A stretch of DNA of 64,000 nucleotides, taken from Candidatus Hydrogenedentota bacterium. Lineage in GTDB: Bacteria > Hydrogenedentota > Hydrogenedentia > Hydrogenedentales > JAEUWI01. The stretch is taken from contig JAEUWI010000010.1 of assembly GCA_016791475.1 (NCBI GenBank), forward strand, positions 20,352 through 84,351, in the 5' to 3' direction. The number at the start of each line of letters is the position of its first letter. Position 1 is the first letter of the stretch. Shown here in pieces: positions 3,166-56,032 of the stretch. Made by a program: the position numbers and the translations under genes. The notes beneath the pieces were generated by a model. It did not search any database. It was given only the letters and a program-made list of their open reading frames with translations, and was not told the DNA's origin.

Positions 3166-3261
3166 GGGATGCGCTCTCTAGTGGGTTAAACACCGTAACC
3201 CTAGCACACGGGGGTAGTGTGGGGCGAATTCAAGGAGCGCTGCGGTCGCTGATTCAGCCTG

Positions 3262-4791
3262 TCAGTGGTCCCGCGCTTTCCCCGCGTTGCCCACGGTGAA
3301 GCGGAAGGCGTAGAGGCTGGCCTGGTCCATTTCGATCCGCAGCCGCGTGGGCTTTCCCGCTCGCGCGGTCACATCGCCGCCATCCTTCCACAGCACCAGC
3401 GCGTCGATCTGGTCGCCCGCAATCGCCTCGCAATCCGCCGTGGTGCGTCCGGGTATCGCCTCGTCCTTCTCGTCGAGAAGGCCCACACGGAGGTACCCGC
3501 CCTCGCGGACGTGGACGTTCAGCTTCAGCAGGTTGCCCTGAAAGAGCAGGGGAGGCGTGGTGAAGGCGCCACCGCCCGTCTCCGCCTCAACGGAGACGAA
3601 GCCGTCCAGTCGTGTGGTGACGCGGCTCATGACGCGGCTGTTGCCGGGCAACACGAGGGCTTCCAGTTCGCCCTCTTCATGGTTCAGGGGGGAGCCGCCA
3701 TAGTACTGGTAGAGGGTATCTCCAACGCGAAGGAGTCCCTGCCCCATATAGAGTGAGCCGGCGTCGAAGCTGCCTTCCGGCCCCAGCGGAATATAGGACT
3801 TCGACTGTTCCGGCCAGGTCCAGGCGATGCCATCCCGGCTCGTGGCCATGCGGATGTCGAGGGTCTGCGTCTGGTGGTTGAAGAGACTGGGGAACATGAA
3901 CCAGGCCCGGGCCGCATGGGGATATTTAAGTGTCGCCGGATTGTAGAGGTCGCTTTCCGGCGGATCCTTCTCGTCGGTCTGAAGCACCAGTTGGAGCGGT
4001 TCAAAGAAAGACAGATCCTTGCTGGTGGATCGTCCCAGGGCCCGTCCCCGCCCGCTGACGCGGCCAAAGAGCACATACTCGGTTGCTCCCTCATCCCACA
4101 CGGCGGAATACTGGCTGTCGCCGAAGATATCGCAAATGGGATCGGGGTAACGGGTCCATGTGAACCCATCGGCCGAATACATGGCGGCCACGCGATAGGG
4201 CGGGGTGCCCAGCACCTCGAAGATACCTTGCGACACCGCCTTGTAGCGCTGTTCCGGTGGTGCGGCGGGGTCTTTGAAAACGTGGCTGCCGTGGACGCGC
4301 GACCGGGCGCCCTCGGGGCCGATCTGGCGAAAGAGGATGTTGTTCTTCGTACTGCCCTGATAGCTGAAGAGGTCCAGCGCCGGCTTGGTCCAGTGAATGC
4401 CATCCGTCGACTCGGCGTAGCAAAAGGAAGTATCGTCCAGATTGGGCCAGCCTTCGATGTCATAGGCCTCATACCACATGCGATAACGCGCCCGGGGCTG
4501 GTCCGGAGTCGAGAGTGTGCCGCCCCGGTCTTCCATCACGGAGAACCAGTTCAACGTGGCGCTCTCCCAGGGCTGATCGCGCACCACATTCTGCTCCCCA
4601 GTCTTCGTGGCGGGGTTCACCTGAAGGCGGACGCCCGAGGCGCTCTCGAAGAAAAGTGTGTCTATAAAAAGCTGCTTCTCGCTGCCGACGTGAATGGGCG
4701 AAGGACCGGTCTCCTCGGCGATAACCGGGAAAGACAGCATCAAAGCTGACACCACGGCCAGCGGGATCAGTGTGGATCTTGGGTACATGCG
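3262..4791 (-). CDS. secreted BNR/Asp-box repeat beta-propeller glycoside hydrolase (sialidase-like)
   Basis: signal peptide MYPRSTLIPLAVVSALMLSFPVIA from internal ATG (ORF track 3262..4872); Asp-box repeats STDGIHWT, SADGFTWT, SRDGIAWT. Confidence 0.6.
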   Translation of the reverse strand, partial: RMYPRSTLIPLAVVSALMLSFPVIAEETGPSPIHVGSEKQLFIDTLFFESASGVRLQVNPATKTGEQNVVRDQPWESATLNWFSVMEDRGGTLSTPDQPRARYRMWYEAYDIEGWPNLDDTSFCYAESTDGIHWTKPALDLFSYQGSTKNNILFRQIGPEGARSRVHGSHVFKDPAAPPEQRYKAVSQGIFEVLGTPPYRVAAMYSADGFTWTRYPDPICDIFGDSQYSAVWDEGATEYVLFGRVSGRGRALGRSTSKDLSFFEPLQLVLQTDEKDPPESDLYNPATLKYPHAARAWFMFPSLFNHQTQTLDIRMATSRDGIAWTWPEQSKSYIPLGPEGSFDAGSLYMGQGLLRVGDTLYQYYGGSPLNHEEGELEALVLPGNSRVMSRVTTRLDGFVSVEAETGGGAFTTPPLLFQGNLLKLNVHVREGGYLRVGLLDEKDEAIPGRTTADCEAIAGDQIDALVLWKDGGDVTARAGKPTRLRIEMDQASLYAFRFTVGNAGKARDH

Positions 4792-6352: not shown

Positions 6353-7411
6353 ATGATCTCCATCATCATTCCCGCGTTCAACCAGCTTGGCTACACACGC
6401 CAGTGCATCGCCAGTATTCTGGAAAATACCGAGGGAGAATATCGACTGATTCTGGTCGACAATGGCTCCACCGAAGCGGTCTACGAATTCTTCTGCGCGG
6501 TTCCCGGCGCCGTGCCCATTCGCTCCGAAACGAACCTCGGTTTCGCCGCCGGTGTCAACCTGGGCCTCCGCGTGGCCGAGGGCCATGTCCTACTGTTGAA
6601 CAACGACACCCTCGTCCCCAGGGGCTGGCTCACCGGCCTCTGCGCCGCGCTGGAGAGCGCCCCGGACATCGGCGTGGTCGGGCCCATGAGCAATTACGTC
6701 TCCGGGAGCCAACTGATTCCCGAGTTGCGCTTCGAAAGCCTTGACGACATCAACGCCTATGCCGAGGAGCGGCGCGCACAGCATGGGGGCCGTCTTCGCG
6801 ACGTGGCACGCCTCGTGGGATTCTGCATGCTCATCCGCGATCGGGTTGTGGCGGAAGTCGGGCTCATGGACGAAGCCTTCGGCCTGGGCAATTTCGAAGA
6901 CGATGACTACTGTGTCCGCGTCCTGCGCGCGGGCTACCGCCTCTGCGTGGACGAGGCCAGTTTCGTCTTTCACTATGGCAACCGGACTTTTCACGCCCTG
7001 GGCCTGGTCGAAGGACGATGGGATGCCCTGCTGGAAGAAAACGCCGCGCGCTTCGGCGCCAAATGGAACCTGAAGCCCGAAGACCGGCTCGATGAATACC
7101 GCGAAGCACTCCAGCTCAACCGCAAGGCGGGCGAGGCCCTGGCGCAGGGCGATCTGGTCGGGGCCATCCGGGGTTACCGCGACGCGCTCCTGCTCGCGCC
7201 CCAACTGGCCCGAAGCCACAACGATCTCGCCGTGGCCCTGTGGCAGGCCGGCGCGGGCGAAGATGCCTTCGAACGCCTCAAGGCGGCCCTGCGCCTCGAT
7301 CCGGAATTTTCCGAAGCGAGGGAAAATCTCCTGGACGTTGGCCGGGCCCTCGGCAGGGAAGAGGAGGCCCGCGATGTTCTCGGGTCGACGAAAGCGGAGG
7401 ATGATCCATGA
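6353..7411 (+). CDS. family 2 glycosyltransferase with C-terminal TPR repeats
   Basis: ISIIIPAFNQ...LILVDNGS...GFAAGVNLG GT2 motifs; C-terminal TPR-like repeats. Confidence 0.8.
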   Translation: MISIIIPAFNQLGYTRQCIASILENTEGEYRLILVDNGSTEAVYEFFCAVPGAVPIRSETNLGFAAGVNLGLRVAEGHVLLLNNDTLVPRGWLTGLCAALESAPDIGVVGPMSNYVSGSQLIPELRFESLDDINAYAEERRAQHGGRLRDVARLVGFCMLIRDRVVAEVGLMDEAFGLGNFEDDDYCVRVLRAGYRLCVDEASFVFHYGNRTFHALGLVEGRWDALLEENAARFGAKWNLKPEDRLDEYREALQLNRKAGEALAQGDLVGAIRGYRDALLLAPQLARSHNDLAVALWQAGAGEDAFERLKAALRLDPEFSEARENLLDVGRALGREEEARDVLGSTKAEDDP

Positions 7412-8013
7412 GTATTACGGTGCGGGAATACCTGCCGGAAGACGAAAGCGAATGGTTGAAGGTTCACGCCATCATCATGAGCATCTCCCACGCGTGGAAC
7501 TACTGCATTCAGGAGCGTCCGGATTACACGGGCTACGTGTCCACCCGCCTCGTTGCCGTGGACGGCGACCGCATCATTGGGTTGATCGATGTGCAGTACG
7601 AGAACGAGCCCGGCGAACTCTGCTTTCAGAAAGATTCGCGCGGCGGTTATGTGCTGGAGTTTGGACGTCTTCCCGAATACGGTGGCGCGGGACTCGGCAA
7701 GCAGTTGATGGACGCCGCCGCGGCGGACGCCAGGCGGCTCGGTTTCAATCGCCTGGAGTACTGGAGTCAGGATCGGCGCGCGCAACGCTACTACAGGCGG
7801 CTTGGACTGAAGGAAATCAGCAGGCACTATCGCTTCCGCTTCAAACCGCCCCAGGCGATTCAGGACGAGTTGATGAAAGACTGCGTCGGTGTGGAATATC
7901 TATACGGCGCCTGTGTGCCCGAAGAGTGGCCCCTTGTGCGGGAGAAGTACGACGTCATCACCAAGCCCCCCCTGGAGCCCCATCTCTGCGTGGGGTTCGA
8001 CGTGCGTTTCTGA
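7408..8013 (+). CDS. GNAT family N-acetyltransferase
   Basis: acetyl-CoA binding region RLPEYGGAGLGKQLMDAAAADARRLGF; ATGA overlap with GT2 gene. Confidence 0.7.
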   Translation: MSITVREYLPEDESEWLKVHAIIMSISHAWNYCIQERPDYTGYVSTRLVAVDGDRIIGLIDVQYENEPGELCFQKDSRGGYVLEFGRLPEYGGAGLGKQLMDAAAADARRLGFNRLEYWSQDRRAQRYYRRLGLKEISRHYRFRFKPPQAIQDELMKDCVGVEYLYGACVPEEWPLVREKYDVITKPPLEPHLCVGFDVRF

Positions 8014-8300
8014 GGCGCGACTGCGGCACGAATAGAAAACAATCTAACCCCGGAGTACGCAGAGGCGCGGAGTATGTACCAGCTACCTGAGCCTCGAAAA
8101 AAAAAGCATCCACCTCAGTTGCTCGTCCTCCGAAACACTTTCTTCTCCGTGCCTCCGTGAGCTCCGTGGTCAATCTTTCCTCGTATTCGTGCAGATTCGT
8201 GTCTATTCGTGGTTTAAATTCCTTGATTGCGAAGCACCCCATGTTCACCCACATCTACGCACGTCGCTATCGCGCCACACGAAAAAAGTTCGTCCCTAAG

Positions 8301-8330
8301 TTGACATCGCCCCCGTCCATTTGCTATTTT
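8301..8330 (+). promoter_or_regulatory. sigma70-like promoter for tRNA cluster (TTGACA-18-TATTTT)
   Basis: hexamer match ~15 nt upstream of tRNA-Gly. Confidence 0.3.
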
Positions 8331-8346
8331 ATTGTCACCACTTCGG

Positions 8347-8422
<76 letters not shown>

Positions 8423-8434
8423 TTTTTATTTTTC

Positions 8435-8510
8435 GGGCCGTTAGCTCAGTTGGTAGAGCAGGTGACTCTTAATCACAAGGTCGGGGGTTCGATCCCCTCA
8501 CGGCCCACCA
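8435..8510 (+). tRNA. tRNA-Lys (anticodon CTT)
   Basis: acceptor GGGCCGT/ACGGCCC, anticodon loop CTCTTAA, GTTCGATCC T-loop, CCA encoded; resembles E. coli tRNA-Lys. Confidence 0.85.
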
Positions 8511-8604
8511 TTTTAACGAATCTTTAGTACACACATCTGAGCCGGCAAATAAAACATGTTTTGCCAGCTTTTTTTTTGGTACTATGGTAGCCCTGCCCCC
8601 GGAC

Positions 8605-8689
8605 GGGCGAGTGGCGGAATTGGCAGACGCGCCAGATTTAGGTTCTGGTACCTCGCGGTGTGCGGGTTCAAGTCCCGCCTCGCCCACCA
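8605..8689 (+). tRNA. tRNA-Leu (anticodon TAG), long variable arm
   Basis: acceptor GGGCGAG/CTCGCCC, anticodon loop TTTAGGT, 13-nt variable arm, CCA encoded. Confidence 0.85.
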
Positions 8690-8718: not shown

Positions 8719-10122
8719 ATGAGCGAAAAAGAATACGAAGATTCAGCAGTGGCCACTCAGGAACCCGGCGAATTTGAATTCGTTGAGGATCCCACCTTTG
8801 ACATCGCCTACAAGGGCGATTGCGCCTACGAAGTCAAAGTGGTCATTCCCGCGGCCAACACCCTCAAGCAGTCTCAGGAAATGTTTGAAGAGCTCCAGGG
8901 CGAAGCGGAGCTGCCCGGTTTCCGGCGCGGCAAAGCCCCCCGCAAGCTGCTTGAGCGCAAGTACGGCAAGGCCGTCCGCGGCGAAGCCACGGAAAAGCTT
9001 GTCAGCGCCGCTTTCCGCAAGCTGATCAAGGGCGAAGAGCTCCGTCCCATCGATTATCCCGATGTGGAAGGTCTCGAAAACCTGGCCGAGCTTGCCGCCG
9101 ACGCCCCCCTCGACTTCACCCTGAAGTTTGAGGTAGCGCCGCGCGTCACGCTGGGCAACTACAAGGGTATCGCCGTTGAACGTCCCGTACTCGCCATCGG
9201 CGACGCGGAAGTGGACGAGGCCATCACGAGCATGCGCCAGCGCTACGCCGCCTATGAGACCATCGCCGACGGCGTTGCCGCCGATGAAGATCAGGTCATT
9301 ATCGATTTCACCGGCACCATCAACGGCGAAGCCTTCGCCGGTGGTTCCGCCGAGAATTATCCCTACATCCTCGGCTCCGGTCGCTTCTTCAAGGAATTCG
9401 AAGAGGCCATCCGCGGCGCCAAGAGCGACTCGGAAGTTTCCTGCGACGTGGCCTTCCCCGACACCTACCATGGCGCCGATGTGGCGGGCAAGACGGCCCA
9501 GTTCACCATCAAGATCAACGAGATCAAGCGCCGCACGATGCCCGAGCTCGACGAGAAGTTCGCCGAGACCGCCGGCTTTGATTCCGTTGACGCCATGCGC
9601 GAAGCCGTGAAGAAAGACCTTCAGGCCGGCGCGGACAATCAAGGCCGCGAGATTGCCGAGCAGCGCGCCATCCAGGCCGTGGTCGAGTCCAGCACCTTCG
9701 AAATCCCCAAGTCGCTCGTCGATTCCACGGCGGATGTCTACTACAAGCAGGAGGTCCGTCGCCTCATCTCCCTTCGCGTCCCCACGACCGAACTGGATGA
9801 AAAGGACGCCGAACTCCGCAAGCAGGCTGAAGAGCATGCCCTGCGCGAGATCAAAGGTTACGTCGTAGTCGGCGAAATCGGCCGCGCGGAAAGCATCACC
9901 GTGTTGGACGAAGACTTCGAGAAAGAAGCCGAAGCCATCGTGAGCCGCACCGGCATGGAGCTCGACATCGCCAAGCGCTTCCTGGACCAGGAAGACAAGC
10001 GCAGCGACTATGAAGAGCGCATCTACCGCAAGAAAGCCGTCGCCGTCGTCATGGACAGTGCGAAGGTGACCGAGAAGAAGGTCACCCGGGAAGAACTGGA
10101 GAAGGATAGCGCCGATGCCTGA
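8719..10122 (+). CDS. tig: trigger factor
   Basis: 467 aa; [14 protein letters not shown] ribosome-binding motif, PPIase middle domain; synteny tig-clpP-clpX-lon. Confidence 0.9.
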
Positions 10123-44382: not shown

Positions 44383-44407
44383 GCCTGAAGCCTGAAGCCT
44401 GAAGCCT
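44383..44407. repeat. (GCCTGAA)3.6 heptanucleotide microsatellite
   Basis: seen directly, between convergent genes. Confidence 0.6.
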
Positions 44408-45822
44408 CACCACGGCGCGCCGATCAAATACTCCAGGATGGCCGCGGCCTGATGCTTGTCTTTCGCGGCGCGCAGGTGTTCGAGTTTGAATTCCATAACA
44501 TTGCGCATGCTTTCCAGCATCTCCAGTATGGAAACCATCTCGCTGCCGGAAGCATATTCGGCCTGCAAGCCTTCCAGGATGGTCTCTTCGCGCTTGAGCA
44601 GATCTTCGCCATAGAGCGCCATGCGCCGGGTGGCGTCATTCCACTGAAATGAATTCTCCCTTGCCTCGGTGGCGAGCATGCGCTGTTCATCCTCCTGGTG
44701 CCAGCGGGTGGCGTTGGCCATGTGTTCCTTCTCGGCAACGCCCGCCCTGATCTTCTTCTTCCATATCGGCAGGTTGATGCCTATCGAGACGGTCAGCTCG
44801 TCGGTCACGCCCCGTTCAGTTTCCTTGAACTTGAAGGTCTCATACAGGTCGATTGCGGTCCCGCCCGTGAACTCTTCGTGACCGGCGGCAATCATGCCGA
44901 GGTCCCGGTAAGTCTGAAGTCGGCCGGGCTCGAAGGGGTCGGTTCGGGCCGCACGCATGTTGCGATCGAGCGCGTAGTCGACGCCGATCGTGATGTCGGG
45001 GTACTTCATCCGCCGCGCCAACTCCACGTCCTTTTCCTCCGCATCGAGGGTATGATCGAACATGCGCAGGGATGGGTTGTTGCTCTTGATGGCGGCTTCG
45101 AGAGATTCCTGGGTGGGCGGCTCCGGGGGGAACTCGGCGGCCTGGGGCGCGGCGATGGGCGCGTCCTGGGGACGGTTCAACGCCGCATTCAGCGCGGCAC
45201 GGCTCGCGGGCTCCATCTGTTCCAGCTCGCTTCGCATATTGTTCATCTTCGCCAACTCCTGCTCCATCCGGAGCACTTCGGCCTCGGATGACCAGCCGGA
45301 CTCATACTGCGCGCGGGCCACCTCGACGGACTCCGCCATGATGCCCGCCTGATGACCCACCAACTTAAGCTCTTCCATCAGGAAGGCGTAGTCAAAGTAG
45401 GCCATCTTCACTTCGCGAAACACCGCGTTGCGCTGTTCGTGCAGGTGGGCCAGCCAATACTCGGCTTCGGCGGCGGCCTTTTCCTTCCGCACCGCTCGGG
45501 TGCCGAACCAGGGAAATTTCTGCTCCAGATCCACCATGAAATAGCTCTCGTCGGTGACGATGAACTGAGTGTAGGTGAACATGGGATCTTCCAGCGCGCC
45601 CGCCTGGGGGATTCGCTCCAGCGCCGCGCGCCAGTCTTCGTAGTGCGCCTTGAGGAGCGGGTGGTTCTCCGCTGCTTCCAGCAGATAACCCCGGAGTTCC
45701 TCATTGCCGGCGAAAAACGCGGGCGCTTCCTCCGGTGATGCTTCGTCGGCGCGGGGAGCATCTGACCAGCCCGCCGCCAATACGGCGATCATCAACAGAG
45801 AGACGAGTTTTAGGTTGCTCAT
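44407..45822 (-). CDS. TolC-family outer membrane efflux protein (CusC/CzcC-like)
   Basis: signal peptide, two-repeat OEP architecture, ATGA-coupled to RND gene. Confidence 0.75.
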   Translation of the reverse strand: MSNLKLVSLLMIAVLAAGWSDAPRADEASPEEAPAFFAGNEELRGYLLEAAENHPLLKAHYEDWRAALERIPQAGALEDPMFTYTQFIVTDESYFMVDLEQKFPWFGTRAVRKEKAAAEAEYWLAHLHEQRNAVFREVKMAYFDYAFLMEELKLVGHQAGIMAESVEVARAQYESGWSSEAEVLRMEQELAKMNNMRSELEQMEPASRAALNAALNRPQDAPIAAPQAAEFPPEPPTQESLEAAIKSNNPSLRMFDHTLDAEEKDVELARRMKYPDITIGVDYALDRNMRAARTDPFEPGRLQTYRDLGMIAAGHEEFTGGTAIDLYETFKFKETERGVTDELTVSIGINLPIWKKKIRAGVAEKEHMANATRWHQEDEQRMLATEARENSFQWNDATRRMALYGEDLLKREETILEGLQAEYASGSEMVSILEMLESMRNVMEFKLEHLRAAKDKHQAAAILEYLIGAPW

Positions 45823-48800
45823 GGGGCCTCCGTCCTTTCTTCGTTCCAGTGATGACGCTGGCTGATGGACATGTAGATGTAGTAGATGACGGGGTAGAAG
45901 ACGAGTTCGATCAGGAAGCCCACAAGAAGGCCGCCAATCATGGGCGCGGCAATGCGGCGCATCACATCGGCGCCGGTGCCTTCGGCCCAGAGCAGCGGAA
46001 CCAGACCGATAAAGGCCGACGCGACGGTCATGGCTTTGGGCCGTATGCGCATGACCGCGCCGTCATAGACCGCGGCCCAGAGATCTTCGCTGTTGCGCAT
46101 GCGCCCTTCCTGCTTGAAACGTTCGAAACTGGTGTCCAGGTAGAGGAGCATGACCATGCCTGTTTCCGCGTCGAGACCGGCGAGGGCGATGATCCCAATG
46201 ACCACGGCGAGGGACAGGTTGTAATCCAGCGCATAGAGGAACCAGAAGACGCCGATCATGCTGAAGGGACATGCCAGGACGATAACAGCCACACGGAACC
46301 AGCTTCGTGAACTTACATACAGCAGCAGTGTGATGATGACGAAGGTGGCCACGGTGGCGGCAAGCAGCCGGGGTATGGCCTTCTCCCAGAACTCAAACTG
46401 GCCGGAGAATACAAGGGTGTAACCCGGAGGCAGTTTCATCTCGCGGGCGACCACCTCGCGCGCTTCGGCAATGTAGCCGCCCAGATCGCGCCCCGCCACG
46501 TCCACATAGATCCAGGCGGTGCGCTGGGCGTTCTCGCTCCGGATCATGGGGGCTCCGGGGTTAATCTGCATTTTCGCCAGTTGGCCCAGGGGGATCTGGG
46601 CGCCCGTGGGCGCGGGCACAAGCAGCCGCTCGAGGGCGGGCAGGTCATCGCGTAATTCGCGGGCGTAACGCAGGTTGAGGGGGTAACGCTCCAGACCCTC
46701 CACCGTCGTGGTAATGTTCATGCCGCCGATGGCCGTCTGGATCACGTCCTGCACATCGCCCACGGTCAAGCCGTGGCGCGCCACCACTTCCCGATCGATA
46801 TCGAAATCGAGATAGTAGCCGCCGAGCGTGCGCTCCGCGTAGGCGCTGGTGGTTCCGGGTATATTGCGAACGGCGTTGGCGGCCTGCTCCGCGAGGTCGC
46901 CGAGGACCTGCAAATCGGGCCCCATGATCTTGATACCCACGGGCGTCTTGATGCCGGTGGCCAGCATGTTTATCCGGTTCTCGATGGGGTAGGGCCACGC
47001 ATTGGCCACACCGGGCAACGAAGTGGCGGCGTTCAGTCCGGCGTGTTGCGTACCGTCCGCGTCGATCCATCCGTACTTCAACTCCTCCATCGTGATGGGG
47101 CGTTCGCTGGGCCAGAATCGATAAAATGGCTTGCGGAGGATCTCGGGCCAGCCGTCATGAAACTGGTTCAGGGTGCGCTTGCGCCAGGCTTCGCGATCGG
47201 GGTTGAGCTGCACCACGGTTTCGATCATGGAAAGGGGCGCGGGGTCCGTGGCCGAGTCCGCGCGGCCGATCTTCCCGTGGACGGAGACAACTTCGGGAAA
47301 GGTCATGATCATCTTGTCGGTCTGCTGCAGCAGTTCCCGGCTTTTCATGACGCTGATGCTCGGGTCGGTGGTGGGCATGTAGAGCAGATCACCCTCGTCC
47401 AGAGACGGCATGAATTCGGACCCGATTCGGGTCATGGGATACCACGTGGAGGCCAGGGCGATGAAGGCGATGATCACCACGCTCCACCGATAGCGAACCG
47501 AGAAGTGGAACAGGGGACTGTACATGCGCTGGAGTATGTTGCTGATGGGGCTGTGCTGCTCGTGGATGATGCGCTGGGGGACCAGAAGCATGCCGGCAAG
47601 CACGGCCCAGCCTATGGCGATGTGGAGCCGCCACGGCGCGAATTCTTCGGAGTAGCCCGCTGCGAGCCACAACATGCCGCCCGGCACGAACATGGCCGAG
47701 AGGGTGATGGCCAGATTGCGGCGCCAGCCCCATTCTTTGGGCAGGACACGCGCGGAAATGAAGTAGTACATGAGCACGGGGATGATCGTGATGCTCAGGA
47801 TCGAAGCGGCGGCCATGGCGGCTGTCTTGGTGAAAGCCAGGGGATGGAAGAGTCTTCCCGCTTCTCCGCCGAGGGCAAAGACGGGGATAAAGCTCACGGT
47901 GATGATGAGGAGCGAAAAGAAGAGCTGGGGGCCCACTTCCTGGGCCGCTTCGAGAATGATGTCGAATCCCGGCCTCGGGGCTTCGCCGCGCTTGACCGCG
48001 TCTTCATCCCGATCCAGATGCTTGTGGCCATTCTCCACCATGACCACGGCGGAGTCCACGACCACGCCGATGGCGATGGCGATGCCGCCAAGGGACATGA
48101 TGTTGGCGTTGATGCCGCAAAGGTGCATGATAAGGAGTGCAACCAGAACGCTGGAGGGCACGACGAATACGGCCACCAGTTCACTGCGGGCGTGGAGCAG
48201 GAAAAGGATGCACACCAGCCCCACCACAATGATTTCTTCGATCAGCGTGCGTTGGAGCGTCTGAATGGAGCGGTTGATCAGCGCGGAGCGATCATAGGTG
48301 GGGATCACTTTGACGCCGGGCGGCAGACCGTCTTCCAATTCAAAGAGACGATGTTTTACGTCCTTGATCACCTGGTACGCATTCTCACCGAAGCGCGCGA
48401 CGATCACCGCGCCGGCGGCCTCGCCGATGCCGTTGAACTCGCCCACGCCGCGCCGGGCTTCACCACCCACCTGAAGCGTGGCCACGTCGCCCAGGAGCAC
48501 AGGAACACCGCCCTCGCCGAGGCCTACGGGCACTTTGGCGAGATCGTCGAGGCCCTTGAGGTAGCCGCGGCTGCGCACCATATACTCGTTTTCACTCAGC
48601 TCGACCACGGAACCGCCCACATCGTTGTTGGACATTTCAATGGCTTCGCTGATTTCGCCGAGGGGGATGTTATAGGCCTGGAGCTTCTGCGGATCGAGCA
48701 CGACCTGGTATTGGCGCACATAGCCGCCAATGGGCGCGACTTCGGACACGCCATCCACCGCCGTCAGGGGGTAGCGGAGATACCAGTCCTGAAGGCTCCG

Positions 48801-49430
48801 GAGCTGCGCGAGATCCTGATTGGCGGGAAGCAGTTCCTTGCCCGTGATCGGGCACGTTCCGGGCTCTTCGAAGGCGCGGACGCGTTCCAGGAGTTTCTTT
48901 CGGTCCGCCGGTGCCTTCTCCGGGTCGGCGTACCACGTGTTTTGTTCCTTATCGTGCCAGAGACCGGCGGGATGGTCCGGGGAGTAGTAGCCTGGATAGA
49001 GCACATACTGGTAAACCCAGCCCACGCCCGTCGCATCAGGCCCCAGCTTGGGCTCCACGCCTTCCGGCAGGCGATCCCGCGCGAAGTTCAGGTATTCCAG
49101 CACGCGGCTTCGGGCCCAGTAGATGTCGGTGCCGTCTTCAAAGAGCACATAGACGAAGGACTGCTCGAACATGCTGAAGCCGCGCACGGCGGTGGATCCG
49201 GGCACGGACAGCATGGCGCTGGCCAGTGGATAGGTGACCTGATCGTCCACCACTTGGGGATTTTGTCCGGGGAATTCCGTCGTGACGATGACCTGCACGT
49301 CGGATAGATCGGGGATCGCGTCCAGACTCAGGTTGAAGACACTCCAAATGCTCATGGCCACCAGCGCCGCGGTCAGCATGGCGACAAGGAGGCGATTCTC
49401 CATGGAAAGTCGGATGATATGGGCGATCAT
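45819..49430 (-). CDS. CusA/CzcA-family heavy-metal efflux RND transporter
   Basis: MIAHIIRLSMENRLLV...LDAIPDLSDVQVIVTTEFPGQ HME-RND N-terminus; ~1200 aa, 12 TM; start at internal ATG giving ATGA overlap with MFP gene. Confidence 0.88.
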   Translation of the reverse strand: MIAHIIRLSMENRLLVAMLTAALVAMSIWSVFNLSLDAIPDLSDVQVIVTTEFPGQNPQVVDDQVTYPLASAMLSVPGSTAVRGFSMFEQSFVYVLFEDGTDIYWARSRVLEYLNFARDRLPEGVEPKLGPDATGVGWVYQYVLYPGYYSPDHPAGLWHDKEQNTWYADPEKAPADRKKLLERVRAFEEPGTCPITGKELLPANQDLAQLRSLQDWYLRYPLTAVDGVSEVAPIGGYVRQYQVVLDPQKLQAYNIPLGEISEAIEMSNNDVGGSVVELSENEYMVRSRGYLKGLDDLAKVPVGLGEGGVPVLLGDVATLQVGGEARRGVGEFNGIGEAAGAVIVARFGENAYQVIKDVKHRLFELEDGLPPGVKVIPTYDRSALINRSIQTLQRTLIEEIIVVGLVCILFLLHARSELVAVFVVPSSVLVALLIMHLCGINANIMSLGGIAIAIGVVVDSAVVMVENGHKHLDRDEDAVKRGEAPRPGFDIILEAAQEVGPQLFFSLLIITVSFIPVFALGGEAGRLFHPLAFTKTAAMAAASILSITIIPVLMYYFISARVLPKEWGWRRNLAITLSAMFVPGGMLWLAAGYSEEFAPWRLHIAIGWAVLAGMLLVPQRIIHEQHSPISNILQRMYSPLFHFSVRYRWSVVIIAFIALASTWYPMTRIGSEFMPSLDEGDLLYMPTTDPSISVMKSRELLQQTDKMIMTFPEVVSVHGKIGRADSATDPAPLSMIETVVQLNPDREAWRKRTLNQFHDGWPEILRKPFYRFWPSERPITMEELKYGWIDADGTQHAGLNAATSLPGVANAWPYPIENRINMLATGIKTPVGIKIMGPDLQVLGDLAEQAANAVRNIPGTTSAYAERTLGGYYLDFDIDREVVARHGLTVGDVQDVIQTAIGGMNITTTVEGLERYPLNLRYARELRDDLPALERLLVPAPTGAQIPLGQLAKMQINPGAPMIRSENAQRTAWIYVDVAGRDLGGYIAEAREVVAREMKLPPGYTLVFSGQFEFWEKAIPRLLAATVATFVIITLLLYVSSRSWFRVAVIVLACPFSMIGVFWFLYALDYNLSLAVVIGIIALAGLDAETGMVMLLYLDTSFERFKQEGRMRNSEDLWAAVYDGAVMRIRPKAMTVASAFIGLVPLLWAEGTGADVMRRIAAPMIGGLLVGFLIELVFYPVIYYIYMSISQRHHWNEERTEAP

Positions 49431-51229
49431 GGCGCGGCCTCCGCCATGGCCGGGACGGCGCGCTCCACGGTGCCGCATTGTTTCATTTCATCGCGATAAT
49501 AAGGGTTGGCCACTTCTTCGCCGGGCTGAATCCACGAGCCTGGGGCCATGGGGCAGTGGATGATGAAGAGATTGGGCGTGACCGCGCCCGAGGGTGCAAA
49601 CTGACCCGCGATGGCGATCATGGCGTCGCTCAGGGGACCGAATTTTTCGCGCTGCACCTCCAGGGGTTGATCGTCCATGGCCTGCGCGGCGCCAAGCAAT
49701 GTTGCCGTGGCGTCCCTCGCGGGGTGGGCTTCATTTGCGATCAGGGTTTCCGCCGCCGCGATGAGGGGCTTAAGATCGAGGGGCTTGTCTTCGCCCGGCG
49801 CGCCGCCAAGGATTGCGCTGAGCTTGAGATACTCCACATAGAGCGCATCGGTTTCGGGCGATGTCTCCGTGGTCTCGGAAGTGACCTCTTCCATGGGCGG
49901 CGCGGCGCTATCATCGAGCATGGGCGTGGCGCTATCGTTTGTCAGGAATTTCTGAACCGCTTCGCGCAGGCGGCTTTCCGTGTCCAACAGGAACTGGCCG
50001 CTCGTGACCACGGCGTCGCCCTCATTCAGGCCCGCGAGGATCTGCACATACCCATCGCTCCCCTGATGTCCCAGTTGCAGTTCCTTGAGCTGAAAGTGGC
50101 CTTTGCCCCCGTCGACAAAAGCGATCTGACGCGCGCCCGTGTTGATGATCGCTTCGCGTGGCGCCAGCAGCGTGTCGTCTCCGAGGATGACGTCCAGGCG
50201 GGCTGTGGCGTACATGCCGGGGCGCAGGCGCATGCCGGGATTGTGAATGGCGAGGCGAGCGGACGTCGTGCGCGTCTCCATGTTCACATGGGGATAGATA
50301 AAATCGATCACACCGGTGACGGGCTCGCCGGGCGCGGCATCGGCCGAGGCGGTCACCGGCTGCCCCAGCGCGATGAAGGGCAGGTCCATCTCGAATAGGG
50401 CGATGTCCATCCATAGGAGATCGTGATCGACGATCTTGAAGAGGGTCGCGCCCGCTTCCACGCCCGCGCCTTCCGACACCATCTTTTCGAGCACATGGCC
50501 CTCCGCCGTGCTCAGAATCGTGACCGTGCGCGGGGCCTCATTGCGCTCGGCGTAGTCCGCTATTTGCTTCGGCGTCAGGCCCCACAACTCCAGTCGTTTT
50601 GCGCTGGTGTTGGCCAGCGCCTGGCCGTGGCCCTCGCGGTTTTTCAACGAGATCAGCTCGCTGATGGCCTGGTGAATTTCCGGGCTGTACAACTCAAAGA
50701 GCGGGTCGCCCGGCGCGATGTACATGCCCTCGGTGTCCGCGTGAAGTTTTTCGATCCACCCGGAAACGCGCAGATTGACCTCGTGGACATTCGGCTCGGC
50801 CTCTTTGAGGAAGCCCGCCGCGCGGATCTCGCGAAAGAGCGGACCCATCCGCACTTTCGCGGTGCGCACGCCCATGTTCTGCACCACGGCGGGGTCGATC
50901 TGAACCGCGCCGCTGGTGTGGGTCGCGCCCGGACCCTGCTTAAGGGGCTCCAGGGCCATGTGGCATATGGGGCAGACGCCGGGCTCTTTCTGGATTACCT
51001 GGGGGTGCATGCTGCAGGTCCAGAGTTGCGCGGTCGATTCTCCACCGGGCTCAGCGGCGGCCTCTGGCGCACCCTCCCGATGCAGGCCCAGGTGATGGGC
51101 GATGGGTTGTCCCCAGCGCGTGCCAAGGGCGATGCCAGCCAGCAAGGCGATGGCCAGTAGAATAAGGGTAATACCGCCGGAACGGTGACCAGCGGGGGGA
51201 AGACCGCTGCGGCTCTTGATTGGATTCAT
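49427..51229 (-). CDS. CusB/CzcB-family periplasmic adaptor (MFP) with N-terminal CxMHP...PGxCPxCxMxL metal-binding domain
   Basis: CSMHPQVIQKEPGVCPICHMALEP; beta-barrel/lipoyl/MPD regions. Confidence 0.85.
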   Translation of the reverse strand: MNPIKSRSGLPPAGHRSGGITLILLAIALLAGIALGTRWGQPIAHHLGLHREGAPEAAAEPGGESTAQLWTCSMHPQVIQKEPGVCPICHMALEPLKQGPGATHTSGAVQIDPAVVQNMGVRTAKVRMGPLFREIRAAGFLKEAEPNVHEVNLRVSGWIEKLHADTEGMYIAPGDPLFELYSPEIHQAISELISLKNREGHGQALANTSAKRLELWGLTPKQIADYAERNEAPRTVTILSTAEGHVLEKMVSEGAGVEAGATLFKIVDHDLLWMDIALFEMDLPFIALGQPVTASADAAPGEPVTGVIDFIYPHVNMETRTTSARLAIHNPGMRLRPGMYATARLDVILGDDTLLAPREAIINTGARQIAFVDGGKGHFQLKELQLGHQGSDGYVQILAGLNEGDAVVTSGQFLLDTESRLREAVQKFLTNDSATPMLDDSAAPPMEEVTSETTETSPETDALYVEYLKLSAILGGAPGEDKPLDLKPLIAAAETLIANEAHPARDATATLLGAAQAMDDQPLEVQREKFGPLSDAMIAIAGQFAPSGAVTPNLFIIHCPMAPGSWIQPGEEVANPYYRDEMKQCGTVERAVPAMAEAAP

Positions 51230-51377
51230 GGTCGAGGCTCCAGATCGAAGGGGGTGATCGGGAGAGGAGCCCTGATGCGGGTGTCAGACGCGAGCGGAAT
51301 CCTCTCGGGAACAGGTTTCGACCGCATTCAACCCGTACAGGTATAGTACACCTGATGGGGCATGCGGGGAGCGAGGA

Positions 51378-51764
51378 TCAGCAGCGGAAAGACTGGGTGC
51401 GCAGGATCAACGGCGGGGGAGATGTCGAATCCTGCTGAGCAATGGCGATGGCAAAGCCTTCGGGCATCTTGGGCAGCAATAGAGCCGCAACGGAAACGGA
51501 TGCCGTCCAAGCGGGGTGGTGATTGTCTTCCGGTCCGGGGTTCGCAGGCCGGGAGGCAGCGGGATTGGCCGCAGCCTGAGTCACCGTCACATCGCAGCAG
51601 GCACGGGAGGCATCCATGACATCGCACGCGGGTTGGGATTCCGCGGCGCAACAACACACGCTGGATACTTCGCCCGACATGCGGCAGGCAAAGGAAACCG
51701 CGCCGGCAGCCCAACCGTGGGCAGCCAGGGCAAGAATCAGAGCGATGTGTATAATTTGTTTCAT
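51378..51764 (-). CDS. small secreted Cys-rich protein (128 aa; CCC, CC and single Cys clusters), candidate periplasmic metal-binding accessory
   Basis: signal peptide MKQIIHIALILALAAHGWAAGA; ...FACRMSGEVSSVCCCAAESQPACDVMDASRACCDVTV; immediately upstream of MFP gene on same strand; coding-like GC3. Confidence 0.5.
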   Translation of the reverse strand: MKQIIHIALILALAAHGWAAGAVSFACRMSGEVSSVCCCAAESQPACDVMDASRACCDVTVTQAAANPAASRPANPGPEDNHHPAWTASVSVAALLLPKMPEGFAIAIAQQDSTSPPPLILRTQSFRC

Positions 51765-52079
51765 GACGCTATTGTAGCAGAGGGTTGGGCCGGACGCAAT
51801 GGACAGTCGAATATACATTCTCTCAACCGTGCGGAACTATGTAATCGGTGTAGAAAAAGAGCTCTGGACCACGGGTTGGACGGATGGGCACGAATGAGAT
51901 GGTCGATTCTGGCGTCACACAAGTCGGCCTCGTCAGGTCCAGACTTCTTTCGGCGTGGGTGTTGCGAAAGCGAGAAGACACGCTTGTTCTTCCGTCAGCT
52001 ATACGACTTCGACGGCCCGAGCGGAAAATTCTTCCCACAGACCGGTGAGGGGCTGTGGGAGGATCATCTGCTACGCCCA

Positions 52080-52478
52080 TCAGTCGCTTCCCGCATGGCC
52101 GTCGCCGCCACTTTCGGGCATATCTTCCTGTTGAACGCGCAGATCGGGTCGGTAACGGTGTCTTTTGTCTGAGTCCTCGGCACACAACGAGGCAAAACTT
52201 CGGTGATAGCGCTTTCCGGGTTGGCGCTTTTCGCGCAAAGCCCATCGAACGAGGAGGAACGCCGCGACCAGGAAAATAACTATCGATACGCTACCTTCCG
52301 TCGAGATCTGGGACTCAAATTGGACGTCGGGCGGAGCCTCGGAGGAATCCGTCACGGCCTGTGCTACGACGAAAGGAAACAGGACACCGCCGTGTTCAGA
52401 TGCAATAATCGCCATCCCCAACAGCGCGGTGGCCATAGGGAAGAGCATTGAGCTACACCGAAGGAGTCGTTCTCTCAT
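52080..52478 (-). CDS. hypothetical small membrane protein (2 TM)
   Basis: ORF track 52080..52766 trimmed to internal start; low-GC region; weak support. Confidence 0.3.
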   Translation of the reverse strand: MRERLLRCSSMLFPMATALLGMAIIASEHGGVLFPFVVAQAVTDSSEAPPDVQFESQISTEGSVSIVIFLVAAFLLVRWALREKRQPGKRYHRSFASLCAEDSDKRHRYRPDLRVQQEDMPESGGDGHAGSD

Positions 52479-52587
52479 CGTAGTCGATATGATACGCAGC
52501 ATGACATTCAATCTCCGCCGGTCACAATCCACTGACGATCCGTTGGGACTTGAATTCGGAATAGGGTTAGATCGTATCGCCCTACCC

Positions 52588-52950
52588 TCACCACCAGCTA
52601 TTATCATCGTTGCGGGGGTTATTCCATTCATCCCGCGTGCGTTGCTCCTCCTCCGAGGCGAAGATGTTGCCGTGAAAGCGATGCGCGACAACGAGCAGTA
52701 TGGCGATGGACAGTAGTACCACAGAATAGACGACGAGAGCCCTTCCCAGTAGCTCCCATCCGGCACTCAGTTCACGAGGTGGAGGGTGGTCATTATCTCT
52801 CGACTGTGCAAATGCCTGTCCGAGACTTTCGGGAACCATGGGCGCTTCTGTTGTTGCGACCAATACCGCCGAAATACATATGACTACACGATAGGCAAGG
52901 GACTTCTTGTCCCGTGCAGGGGATTTGTCGCCGGAGGAAGTTCTCATTTT
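52588..52950 (-). CDS. hypothetical small membrane protein (2 TM)
   Basis: ORF track 52588..52959; directly downstream of GRDP-like gene on same strand. Confidence 0.35.
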   Translation of the reverse strand, partial: KMRTSSGDKSPARDKKSLAYRVVICISAVLVATTEAPMVPESLGQAFAQSRDNDHPPPRELSAGWELLGRALVVYSVVLLSIAILLVVAHRFHGNIFASEEEQRTRDEWNNPRNDDNSWW

Positions 52951-52962
52951 GTGCCGCACGAA

Positions 52963-53850
52963 TCAACTGCCGCACCCGCCGCCACATCCACCACCGCCGC
53001 AACCACTTCCGCACCCGCTATCGCCTCCACAACCCGATCCTCCATCGCCGCTGCTTCCGCAACCGAACCAGGAACTGCACCCGCCACCGCCACCGCCACC
53101 ATCTTTGCCCTCGCGCTTTCCTCGTGCGGCTCCCGCTACGGAAACCAGCGCGCCAGTAAGCACAATTCCCCCACACACCGTTATCAGGGCAACCTGGGGT
53201 GTCGTTAACGTGTCCTGTTCCTTTGTTGAGTCCTTGTCAACGGCTTCGGTGCGCTGCGCGTGGGTATCCAGAAAGAGAGGAGGGTGGCCGGTGGAAATCG
53301 CGAGGCCCAGCACGGACAGCATCCCCGCGACCAATGTGCCTGCGACGACACGTCTCGCGCGAACCCGGGGTATTACCCAGAATCGGGCAGGCTGGAGCCA
53401 CACGCCCTGATTGCGTCGCGCAAAGCGCTCCTTCGCATCGGGCCAGATGTCGCGCGGGGCCACCTCGCCGAAGGTCTGTTCGTAGAGCGCCAGGGTGTAT
53501 TCATACTGGCCTTCGAAGCGCTCGCCTTCGGCCTTGCCGCCTTTGGTGGGGCCGTGGTGGAGGTAGCGCCCGAACAGGGCGTCGCACCATTCATGGTAGG
53601 ACTCGGTGTAGACGATGTGGAGGTGCCAGGCCTGGTCCACGGCTTCGCTGGGCGTCACGTGGCGGTCGGAAATTGCCGCCAGGATGAGGAAGCGGGTGTA
53701 TTCCCGCACGACGCGCTCGGTGAAGGGCCGGGTCCAGCCGTATTGTTCGCGCTGGAGGCGGGCGGTAAAGTTGAGCGCGGCGTCGGGGTCGTTGAGTTGC
53801 AGGGCGTCCGCTTTTGCGATAAGTTCCGGCAGGGTCGGGGGTTGGATCAT
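52963..53850 (-). CDS. GRDP-like (DUF1399-type) domain membrane protein with two TM helices and a C-terminal Cys/Gly-rich metallothionein-like tail
   Basis: AWHLHIVYTESYHEWCDALFGRYLHHGP; TM1 VVAGTLVAGMLSVLGLAI, TM2 VALITVCGGIVLTGALVSVAGAA; tail GGGGGGGCSSWFGCGSSGDGGSGCGGDSGCGSGCGGGGCGGGCGS; GGGAG RBS before ATG at 53850. Confidence 0.6.
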   Translation of the reverse strand: MIQPPTLPELIAKADALQLNDPDAALNFTARLQREQYGWTRPFTERVVREYTRFLILAAISDRHVTPSEAVDQAWHLHIVYTESYHEWCDALFGRYLHHGPTKGGKAEGERFEGQYEYTLALYEQTFGEVAPRDIWPDAKERFARRNQGVWLQPARFWVIPRVRARRVVAGTLVAGMLSVLGLAISTGHPPLFLDTHAQRTEAVDKDSTKEQDTLTTPQVALITVCGGIVLTGALVSVAGAARGKREGKDGGGGGGGCSSWFGCGSSGDGGSGCGGDSGCGSGCGGGGCGGGCGS

Positions 53851-54000
53851 GAGGTTTCTCCCTCGTCGTTTGTTCCCATCGTTCGTTGTGGGAGTATACC
53901 CGAATTGGGGAGGAAATATTCGCAGGTTGCGAGGCTCGATTGCGGGGACGGCAGGGGCGAGCGGTGGCAATGGCTATGATGAAGCTTGCTGTGGGATTTA

Positions 54001-54137
54001 CCCCCCCTACCCCCCCGCAAGCGGGTGGACCAAGCGGTTCACTTTGACACGTGTGGTTCCCCCCGCAAGCGGGTGGACCAAGCGGTTCACTTTGACACGT
54101 GTGGTTCCCCCCGCTTGCGGGGGGCCACGGGGGTAGG
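54001..54137. repeat. tandem 48-nt repeat (2 copies plus partial) of CCCCCCGCAAGCGGG hairpin + TGGACCAAGCGGTTCACTTTGACACGTGTGGTT, bracketed by inverted CCCCCTACCCCC / GGGGGTAGG
   Basis: seen directly; homologous to element at 36411..36499. Confidence 0.7.
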
Positions 54138-54211
54138 TCCTCGAAGTAGTAGAGTCTAACACTCCGCTCTCGCCAGGCTGCAATGCCAGCCAGATACTGT
54201 CCCCGTGGGAC

Positions 54212-56032
54212 CTAAAACAACTTCTCGACGTAGACCCGGTCGCCGTCTTTGAGGTGGGCGGAGGCCATAAACTCGGGAGCCATGCGCGCGGTGGTTCCGT
54301 TGCCGGGATCCGCGGCCTTGAGGTGGATGCTGTGGAGTCCGCCGAGCCACCAGCGCTGATCGCAGACGTAGAGCAGATCGCCGTGTTCGGCGGCGAGGGT
54401 GTGGAGGTGTTCGCTGGAAAGCTGGACCACCTCTTGGCCTTCGAGGGCCGGGTCGGATTCGACGGTGAGGTAGACGAGCTTGCCTTCGCGACGGTTGATT
54501 TTTCCGCCTTTGAACTGCTCCATGGCGTGGAGCTGCGTGCCGTTGACGAGGCCCGCGATGGCCTCGATGGGCTGGGGGCGCGTCGCGAGGGCGACGACGA
54601 CGCCGAGGGCGCCGCTGGCGACCAGGCCGAAGAGGGCGCGGGTGAAACCGTAGCTGTCGGGGCCCATGCCGAAGGAGAAGGCGCTCAGCAGCCACCCGTC
54701 GAAGGGCGCCAGGGTGGAGAGGAACACGAGCAGACTACCGCCAATGAGGGTAGCCAACGCGGCGGGGGCGTTGTAGCGCCTCCAGAGGATGCCGAGCAGG
54801 ATCGCCATGACGATGGGCGGTGTGATGGCGGCGGTGAATTTCGCGTGGGCCTGATAGACCGTGTCGCCCTGGAAGACGGGGACAAGGGCAAGGCCGATGG
54901 CCGCCACGGTAAGGCTGGACAGGCGCGCGACCTTGAGGTAGTGCTGATCGTGCGCGCCCTTCTTGATATAGGGCTGGTAGATGTCGTTCACAAAGACCGC
55001 GCTCGCCGCGTTGATCAGGGTGTCCGCCGTGCTCATCAGGGCGGCCATAAGCGCGGCGAGGACGAAGCCGAATACGCCGGGTCCGCAGAGAAAGTGAGAG
55101 GCGAGGATGAAGGCCTCGTTGGCCTTTGCTTCGAGATCGCCATTCTCAACCAGCGCCCGGGCAGCCCAGCCGCCGCCGCTCACGGTGATGGCGGCGAGGG
55201 GCGACAGAATCAGAATCCAGCAGATGGCCATTTTCTGGCCGTCTTTGACGCTGCGCATGGCGAGGAAGCGCATGATGATACCCTGATTCATCAGCACGAA
55301 GGCGCCCGAATTTGCGAGTCCATCCTGGGCGTAGATGCCGATGAAGCTGAATTTGTCGGGCGCGTTGAACTCGGAGAAGATGTAGCGGTGGGACTGTGGG
55401 AGCAGGGCCCAGAAATCCACGAAGCCGCCGACGTGGGCGACGCCGGCGAGGAAGATGCCGACGCCCACGACGAGGAGCGTGATGCCCTGTACGAGGTCGG
55501 TCATGATGACGGAGGTCTGGCCTCCGGCGAAGACATAGAAGGTGACGGCGACACAGGCGAGGGCCGCTCCGGCGAAGATGTTCCAGCCGACCATGGTGTT
55601 GAGGGCAACGCCGAGGGTGAGGAGGTTGATACCCACGTAGCCCACGAGGTAGATGAGAATGATGGTCGTGGCCACGGCGCGGGGGATACGTCCGAATCGG
55701 CGCTCAAAGTATTCCGGCACGGAGTAGACGCGCTGGTAATAGATGATGGGCAGCCAGACGAGCAGGAGGATGGGCATCCAGAACCAGTCATTGAGGTAGG
55801 TCTGGCTGCTGCTGATACCGTAGCTGAAGCCGGCCTCGCTGTACTTTACGAAGCTGTAGCTGCCGACGGTGGTTGCCGTCGCGGAGAAAGCAATGACCCA
55901 CCAGGCAAAACGCTGGCCGCCGAGGTAAAAGTCTTTCGTGGTGGTGCTGTACTTGCCGAAGAAGACGCCGAAGCCCACCACGGCGACGAAGTAAATCAGC
56001 AGGACCGCGACGTCCAGGGGGGTTCCGATCAT
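54212..56032 (-). CDS. sodium:solute symporter (SSS) family transporter
   Basis: MIGTPLDVAVLLIYFVAVVGFGVFFGKYSTTTKDFYLGGQRF N-terminus; ~13 TM; ATGA overlap with upstream small membrane gene. Confidence 0.85.
   Translation of the reverse strand: MIGTPLDVAVLLIYFVAVVGFGVFFGKYSTTTKDFYLGGQRFAWWVIAFSATATTVGSYSFVKYSEAGFSYGISSSQTYLNDWFWMPILLLVWLPIIYYQRVYSVPEYFERRFGRIPRAVATTIILIYLVGYVGINLLTLGVALNTMVGWNIFAGAALACVAVTFYVFAGGQTSVIMTDLVQGITLLVVGVGIFLAGVAHVGGFVDFWALLPQSHRYIFSEFNAPDKFSFIGIYAQDGLANSGAFVLMNQGIIMRFLAMRSVKDGQKMAICWILILSPLAAITVSGGGWAARALVENGDLEAKANEAFILASHFLCGPGVFGFVLAALMAALMSTADTLINAASAVFVNDIYQPYIKKGAHDQHYLKVARLSSLTVAAIGLALVPVFQGDTVYQAHAKFTAAITPPIVMAILLGILWRRYNAPAALATLIGGSLLVFLSTLAPFDGWLLSAFSFGMGPDSYGFTRALFGLVASGALGVVVALATRPQPIEAIAGLVNGTQLHAMEQFKGGKINRREGKLVYLTVESDPALEGQEVVQLSSEHLHTLAAEHGDLLYVCDQRWWLGGLHSIHLKAADPGNGTTARMAPEFMASAHLKDGDRVYVEKLF

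Follow-up and report, generated by a model that had tools for sequence, protein, structure and literature searches.

A probable Cys-rich leader gene at the head of a heavy-metal efflux operon of Candidatus Hydrogenedentes and its probably unrelated neighbours

The window analysed here, a stretch of 64,000 nucleotides (nts) to which all coordinates refer, belongs to contig JAEUWI010000010.1 of a Candidatus Hydrogenedentes metagenome-assembled genome (MAG). It contains a tripartite heavy-metal efflux operon of the resistance-nodulation-division type (HME-RND) and, directly upstream, a block of four open reading frames (ORFs) designated A, B, C and D; pump and block genes all lie on the minus strand. 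The initial annotation interpreted the block as a metal-handling module, in which A, B and/or C, and D would jointly serve the pump as a front-end for chaperoning or sequestration. According to our analysis the region probably brings together three unrelated things, namely D, which is the leader gene of the efflux operon, a stand-alone gene A, and the two orphan ORFs B and C. An accessory role is thus retained for D, without the sequestration part, the features of this protein appearing to point to a sensor or regulator of the CutF/CzcI type and not to a sequestration store; for the other three parts the front-end proposal fails. In the NCBI annotation three of the four are hypothetical proteins, namely A, D and C in a 122-aa form, and scans of local Pfam and NCBIfam libraries matched none of the four.

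Gene D (positions 51378-51764, minus strand; GenBank MBL7646009.1) is a conserved accessory of HME-RND operons and the sole true associate of the pump in the block. A gene of the D family is found directly upstream of an HME-RND operon, and on the same strand, in all 14 loci for which the context could be recovered. Eight of these are close to the gene studied here (the window itself, L001, L003, L015, L094, L095, L096 and L097), while six are distant, with 32-43 % identity (P0205, P0258, L011, L012, L098 and L099, including a Polyangia MAG). The gene that follows D encodes the outer-membrane factor (OMF) in some loci and the membrane fusion protein (MFP) in others, so that it is the leading place in the operon that is conserved. 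The MFPs of D-headed operons are of the HMBD type throughout. Over the 14 loci, the spacer between the D-family gene and the next HME-RND gene measures 13-184 nts, and 148 nts in the window.

The description of D as a secreted 128-aa protein with CCC/CC clusters proved correct. Its N-terminus, MKQIIHIALILALAAHGWAAG, reads as a signal peptide, with a positive n-region, a hydrophobic core and a small-residue site, and is followed by (Y/F)xCxMSGEV, the CCC and CCD clusters, a variable linker, SPPP and a final LILRTQSFRC that ends at the stop codon. The family repeats this layout: after the signal peptide and (Y/F)xCxMSGEV come the CCC cluster, about 15 residues, CCD/E, a variable linker and R(A/G)PP...PP(L/I)(F/Y)LxNxS(F/L)(R/L)(C/I)-stop. 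There are 14 close homologues, and an exhaustive profile search yielded 89 representative clusters of distant relatives, nearly all 120-135 aa in length. In 42 aligned sequences C27, G31, C39, C56 and C57 never vary, while conservation of C37 and C38 reaches 90 % or more. Among 87 members, 77 are shorter than 150 aa, 76 have a hydrophobic N-terminal segment, 83 combine a CCC-type motif with a second CC, and 75 carry PP or PxP within the last 22 residues; in D itself the prolines form a PPP at residues 116-118 of 128. The structure model is only partly ordered, with a predicted local distance difference test score of 65, which does not suffice for searching by fold, and groups the seven conserved cysteines in a small predicted beta-sheet module, while the C-terminal half is predicted to be disordered. 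D is predicted to bind metal. A lipoprotein reading was rejected, as the residues S-F-A before C27 do not fit a lipobox.

These properties can be compared with a published class of leader genes. CutF-like genes were defined by Öztürk et al. (mBio 2023, PMC9973294) as encoding proteins of less than 150 aa with a Sec signal peptide, a Cys/His motif and a PP in the last 15 residues, followed on the same strand and less than 1000 nts away by a gene of metal homeostasis. Their commonest neighbours are components of RND efflux systems, and CzcI has been placed in the group (PMC9973294). In the case of CutF, copper on the nascent exported chain and the Pro-rich motif delay the ribosome, which leads to the unfolding of a stem-loop that masks the Shine-Dalgarno sequence of the downstream gene (PMC9973294). 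With 128 aa, a signal peptide, Cys motifs, PPP at the positions given above and a 148-nt same-strand spacer to an HMBD-MFP, D falls within this definition. Judged by these rules, it looks like a divergent and uncurated branch of the known CutF/CzcI-type metal-sensing leader genes, to which homology is not demonstrable. The statement that the block has no known counterpart in cus/czc loci is therefore wrong for D, since CutF-like and CzcI-type leader ORFs ahead of RND efflux operons have already been published (PMC9973294, PMC10127602).

The 148 nts that separate D from the MFP gene (positions 51230-51377, minus strand) make up a leader RNA. The alignment of seven orthologous D-to-MFP spacers, 148-184 nts long, reveals strongly conserved non-coding blocks, of which there are four. 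One of them, GAUCCUC...CUCC, is close to the stop codon; a hairpin and GAGAGGAU are two more, and the fourth consists of CUCCUCUCCCGAUC with GAUCUGGAG, the Shine-Dalgarno sequence of the MFP gene, behind it. The RNAalifold consensus comprises a hairpin that follows the stop codon, a GAGAGGA:UCCUCUC helix, and a long-range helix in which the stop region pairs with the Shine-Dalgarno sequence and the AUG of the MFP gene. Pair counting over the seven spacers found 10 pairs changed on both sides, which none of 500 shuffles reached, and 90.7 % of cells are paired compared to 30-43 % in slid controls. The spacer is thereby supported as a conserved structured RNA with compensatory changes, the covariation being confined to the hairpin and the GAGAGGA:UCCUCUC helix. 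When a ribosome is modelled at the stop codon of D, the ribosome-binding site becomes more accessible in most orthologues; masking of this site by the leader is no more than putative. A hand-drawn local hairpin, pairing CUCCCGAUC with GAUCUGGAG to sequester the Shine-Dalgarno sequence, was abandoned because RNAalifold favoured pairings between blocks 2 and 3 and between the stop region and the ribosome-binding site. In Rfam, neither the leader nor the tandem repeat described further below matched a family, the only hit being a chance miRNA match (E = 0.46).

A number of observations weigh against reading D as a leader gene of the CutF/CzcI type that is independent of A. At the level of the protein, D is connected to CutF-like families by no curated model. 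PF11162 (DUF2946) has no match at E <= 1 in D, in 42 members of its family or in the L098 and L099 proteins; the positive control, CzcI, is itself matched weakly (E = 0.026). NF047658 (HYC_CC_PP) does not match D and recognizes one of 42 family members, at E = 0.091. A direct comparison of D with CzcI of pMOL30 by hhalign yielded a probability of 21.7 % over 28 columns, which comprise the signal peptide and the first Cys only, and homology to CzcI was rejected on this basis. The PP motif is found inside the last 15 residues in only 48 of the 87 members, and D-family spacers of 86-184 nts exceed those of most CutF-like cases. As for the RNA, the helices that would mask the Shine-Dalgarno sequence are either invariant or broken and never covary, the modelled ribosome at the stop codon of D does not raise accessibility in the window (0.45 to 0.42), and the duplex between the stop region and the ribosome-binding site beats shuffles in only four of ten loci, the window not being one of them. 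Finally, A and D are possibly co-transcribed where the spacer between them is short, as in L003 (117 nts).

D is probably the leader gene of a D-MFP-RND-OMF heavy-metal efflux operon. Its product is short and Sec-exported; cysteines cluster close to the N-terminus of the mature protein, a hydrophobic and Pro-rich peptide is conserved at the C-terminus, and the gene is followed by the structured spacer RNA. D would most likely serve as a periplasmic metal sensor of the CutF/CzcI type and tune either the production of the pump, acting in cis while it is itself being translated and exported, or the activity of the pump in trans. Going one step further, we tentatively suggest, as a conjecture that may well turn out otherwise, that the D family and its leader RNA constitute a distinct, uncurated class of co-translational metal-sensing arrest peptide through which Hydrogenedentota, Myxococcota and further phyla outside the Proteobacteria control their HME-RND pumps, with stalling at or near termination and not at the prolines.

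It is also possible, though we doubt it, that D acts in trans only, as a stable periplasmic protein and not as a nascent-chain sensor in cis. It could then be a 'quencher' similar to CzcI, damping the pump for essential cations, or a metallochaperone similar to CusF that delivers metal to the HMBD-MFP. CzcI, which alone among the leader proteins of RND pumps has been characterised, does act as a periplasmic quencher of CzcCBA, and the HMBD present on all downstream MFPs provides a possible partner for a protein whose seven conserved cysteines are predicted to form a small folded module. However, the disorder predicted for the C-terminal half of D is harder to accommodate, and homology to CusF or CzcI was not detected. 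While the weakness of the evidence for Shine-Dalgarno masking speaks for a protein acting in trans, the Pro-rich C-terminal peptide, which lies at a fixed distance from the stop codon, and the conserved structured spacer fit a cis leader better. A further point against this reading is that D keeps its place at the start of the operon whether the gene behind it encodes an OMF or an MFP.

Some D-like genes have neighbours reminiscent of a known locus. In the Polyangia MAG (L011, positions 7006-8456), a gene for a cation diffusion facilitator (CDF) transporter is located directly upstream of the D-like gene, and a FUR-family gene is nearby; in L012 (positions 2668-4290) a PEMT/CzcN-like gene is close to the D-like gene. 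Both arrangements echo the czcN-czcI-czcCBA-czcD layout. On plasmid pPSMK1 of the cultured planctomycete Phycisphaera mikurensis (L100, positions 137-1383), genes for a Cys/Pro-rich hypothetical protein of 139 aa and for a 211-aa protein with two YHS-like repeats precede a cluster of TolC, MFP, RND, CopA and CopB. The 139-aa protein occupies a leader position but was rejected as a homologue of D (hhalign probability 0.6 %), and may therefore be yet another type of leader.

Gene A is a different case. It runs from an ATG at position 53850 to a stop codon at 52963 on the minus strand (52963-53850; 295 aa; GenBank MBL7646011.1), within the variable spacer between a sodium:solute symporter (SSF) gene and D, and it is a stand-alone gene that does not belong to the pump system. 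A does stand next to D and the pump, on the same strand, in the window and in L001, L003 and L015. Species-representative genomes were scanned, at least 578 of which encode a relative of A, and 80 species-level loci were kept. A pump, D or SSF gene occurs within 8 kb of A in one of the 80, L015, which is a close relative with an RND protein 96 % identical, and clustering of all neighbouring ORFs revealed no neighbour family that recurs in more than nine loci. Conversely, L094 (YfhO, D, MFP), L095 (SSF, D, MFP) and L096 lack A and have all kept D and the pump. No pump is found near the A homologues of L007, L009 and L010. A Hydrogenedentes homologue with 45 % identity is embedded in the order 75-aa gene, SSF, A, then ParDE and unrelated genes, and another one, with 51 % identity, adjoins dprA; within Hydrogenedentes, the SSF gene is the neighbour of A that is kept. 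Conservation of the neighbourhood with HME-RND operons, which the initial annotation had proposed to check, is a property of D and not of A. The same annotation named absence of co-occurrence with efflux genes and failure of its GRDP assignment in a profile search as grounds for giving it up; this is essentially what is seen for A, and is not what is seen for D.

The spacer that harbours A is variable: even close relatives differ in whether A is present between the SSF gene and D, and this stretch has the look of an indel hotspot. The transmembrane (TM) and linker part of A diverges much faster than the neighbouring genes, the L015 protein being 57-67 % identical as compared to 96 % for RND.

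The sequence of A was correctly described as that of a membrane protein with two TM helices and a Cys-Gly-Ser tail, which the AlphaFold2 model and the sequence confirm: a soluble N-domain is followed by helices at residues 162-187 and 217-242 and by a disordered Cys/Gly/Ser tail that ends in SGCGGGGCGGGCGS. A further claim, that the N-domain is GRDP/DUF1399-like, was only half right. PF07173 does not match A itself at E <= 0.1, and membership is not upheld; it does match 10 of 43 relatives weakly (E <= 1, best E 1.3e-4), which indicates a distant relationship between the domains. A has more than 2,000 homologues, which are named 'glycine-rich domain-containing protein' and carry the precomputed tag PF27765 (UCP032817-like). 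The assignment of A to this family is taken from the tag of P0001, the representative of its 90 %-identity cluster, and from those of all 120 listed homologues, with which the invariant motifs are shared. Across many phyla the architecture is uniform in an alignment of 43 members, consisting of the N-domain, two poorly conserved TM helices and the tail, and the N-domain contains the invariants TPS, D72, W75-H76-L77-H78, Y85, H99, P101 and G105. The family tail, GCGGGGCGGGCGS, has a conserved ending (...SGC-GG-GGCGG-G-CGS) that is likewise found across phyla; being conserved family-wide, the Cys-Gly tail is a trait of the whole family and not an adaptation to the pump locus. For A, the positive-inside rule predicts that the tail lies in the cytoplasm. 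A search with the predicted fold of A found no solved structural relative.

The Cys-Gly tails of the A family also give weak matches to PF12669 (FeoB-associated Cys-rich membrane protein) and PF25184 (YxzE-like), which suggests that tails of the GCGGC type recur in several unrelated families of small membrane proteins.

What has just been said about A leaves the front-end proposal highly improbable. Its strength is the same-strand adjacency of A, D and pump in the window and in L001, L003 and L015, together with Cys-rich sequences of A and D that could plausibly bind thiophilic metals. However, the single locus out of 80 in which A accompanies a pump comes from the same clade, three close relatives have D and the pump without A, and the tail of A is kept without change in lineages where no pump lies close by. 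Moreover, HME-RND pumps take up their substrates mainly from the periplasm (PMC10127602), whereas the tail of A is predicted to be on the cytoplasmic side, and B and C are absent from the nearest relatives.

A could still have a metal role of its own that is independent of the pump, if it were a TIGR04222-like protein whose tail is modified after translation, for example by an MNIO (DUF692) enzyme, into a metal-chelating group. We consider this rather improbable. TIGR04222 proteins with such tails have been proposed to be MNIO substrates, and bufferins chelate copper (PMC12452194). The connection to A is made by longer relatives of about 480-510 aa, named 'TIGR04222 domain-containing membrane protein', in which an A-type N-domain is fused to TIGR04222; A itself, however, is not matched by TIGR04222 at E <= 0.1. 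The invariant D72, H76, H78 and H98/H99 of the N-domain suggest a metal or active site. The fold is without a solved relative. Neither an MNIO gene nor any other is a recurrent neighbour in the 80 loci, and in L001, L003, L007 and L009 there is no MNIO-like gene within 10 kb and no MNIO Pfam tag among the called neighbours. The survey of 2025 also restricts the MNIO link to a subset of the tailed TIGR04222 proteins, a third of the genomes with TIGR04222 having no MNIO, and the tails described there are periplasmic, in contrast to the cytoplasmic location predicted for that of A (PMC12452194).

The remaining two reading frames, B (positions 52588-52959) and C (positions 52080-52502), both on the minus strand, are carried by a strain-specific, lower-GC insertion of about 0.9 kb. 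Positions 52041-52950 of the window have no counterpart in the closest relative L001 (84 % nt identity across A), in L003, where the A-to-D spacer measures 117 nts, or in L015. The one or two small proteins with two TM helices announced by the initial annotation exist as ORFs, but as strain-specific orphans and not as parts of a module. No homologues of B or C were found in the related loci, and the metagenome collection yielded no relative of C. B and C share no similarity either, which excludes paralogy. The lower-GC block of the initial annotation is also largely accounted for here: the drop is real, but GC is 0.55-0.59 and not about 52 %, and the dip is limited to approximately 51750-53000, which is mainly the B/C insertion and not A or D.

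It seems unlikely that B and/or C are genuine small bitopic membrane proteins that arrived with a mobile insertion and whose function is tied to A or D. Each starts with a hydrophobic segment, to which a second TM helix and a charged tail are added, and in each GC at the first codon position exceeds that at the second, as in coding sequence; at the third position, by contrast, GC is only 0.57-0.60, far below the 0.72-0.86 of the neighbouring genes. C is called by both NCBI and ENA (the 122-aa form is GenBank MBL7646010) and has a copy with at least 90 % identity on another contig, whereas B is called by no source and is absent from the protein collection. There is no family match for either, and no homologue beyond near-identical copies. 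Both are orphan ORFs of doubtful coding status.

The A-to-D spacers of L001 (positions 3478-3912) and L015 (positions 8903-9301) contain ORF-like translations such as HRFSQICTD and FFTTDYTDRHG, which look like dispersed non-coding repeat elements and not like genes.

Upstream of A, the tandem repeat which was said to bound the block is real, with 2.3 copies of a 48-nt period and 96 % matches at positions 54011-54121, where it forms a strong hairpin just 3' of the SSF stop codon. Within the window the repeat unit occurs at this place only, and it is absent from L001. Together with its flanks (positions 53990-54215) it folds into a hairpin of -117 kcal/mol (z = -4.4). It would probably act as a terminator or insulator and not delimit a functional module. 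The SSF gene itself occupies positions 54212-56032 on the minus strand and was identified by PF00474 on its orthologues in L001, L003 and L007.

At the other end of the block, the efflux operon was correctly recognized as an MFP-RND-OMF system directly downstream on the same strand. Its first gene (positions 49427-51229) encodes an MFP of the CusB/CzcB adaptor type, with an N-terminal HMBD and a C-terminal DUF3347/LIC13259-like domain (PF16576, 1.6e-58; PF19335, 4e-10; TIGR01730, 109.8 bits for a cutoff of 94.9). It is followed by a heavy-metal RND permease of the CusA/CzcA family with 1219 aa (positions 45819-49478; TIGR00914, 1063.7 bits for a cutoff of 701) and by a TolC/CzcC-type OMF (positions 44407-45822; PF02321, 6.2e-31, 108 against a cutoff of 22). 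The three minus-strand genes overlap or abut, as expected of a tripartite HME-RND efflux operon. In the MFP, two putative metal sites surround the adaptor core, the HMBD (CSMHPQV...CPICHM) and a C-terminal HCPM...C motif. Elsewhere in the window, three tRNA genes, Gly(gcc), Lys(ctt) and Leu(tag), are clustered on the plus strand at positions 8347-8689.

The recognition of small leader ORFs as sensors of periplasmic metal by which efflux pumps are tuned is recent; CutF was reportedly described in 2023, and the quenching role of CzcI is said to have emerged around the same time. To our knowledge, the diversity of such leader ORFs outside Proteobacteria and Bacteroidota has barely been mapped. 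The D branch comprises about 90 representative clusters with a CCC/CCD signature that are missed by the current Pfam and NCBIfam models and are strictly tied to HME-RND operons of the HMBD type, and a profile for it would improve the annotation of metal-resistance loci in metagenomes. The analysis also does away with a tempting but wrong connection of metal efflux to PF27765, a widespread family with Cys-Gly tails.

Compared with known systems, A is a typical PF27765 protein, sharing the motifs TPS..VDQxWHLH...Y...LHHGPTxGG, the two TM helices and the terminal Cys-Gly tail. The GRDP-like proteins of PF07173 are those of plants (GRDP1/2), to which the bacterial PF27765 proteins are only distantly alike. 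With the TIGR04222 membrane proteins (PMC12452194) A has in common the same kind of disordered Ser/Gly/Cys C-terminal tail, but it lacks the TIGR04222 domain.

For D, three groups of small exported proteins are relevant. Many C-termini of the D family (...PP...NCS[FY]LI) resemble what we take to be the pattern of HYC_CC_PP (NF047658), small proteins of Bacteroidota which presumably have the same three-motif layout as D, with an aromatic-Cys, a CC, and a PP followed by a hydrophobic C-terminus. The CutF-like (DUF2946-like) leader proteins, among them CutF of Rhodobacter capsulatus, CruR and CopL, resemble D in that RND components are the commonest of their published neighbours and in that a structured spacer comes before the downstream gene. 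However, the Cys motif of D is CCC plus CCD/E in place of CxxxC, its conserved C-terminal peptide (PP-L-[FY]-L-x-N-x-S-F-R-C) continues for 10-11 residues past the prolines, and the spacer in its clade is longer, with 148-184 nts; in addition, the phyla in which the D family occurs, Hydrogenedentota and those of the Myxococcota type, are poorly represented in the published CutF-like lists. The third group is formed by CzcI and CzcI2 of Cupriavidus metallidurans (czcICBA), which like D are small, are exported and have their genes directly upstream of an HME-RND operon, and CzcI is a co-transcribed periplasmic modulator that quenches the activity of CzcCBA (PMC10127602). In both CzcI and D an aromatic-x-Cys lies a few residues behind the point where the signal peptide is cleaved (ARYCQH and SFACRM, respectively), and each has a second Cys motif, but CzcI is rich in His and has no PP motif, unlike D.

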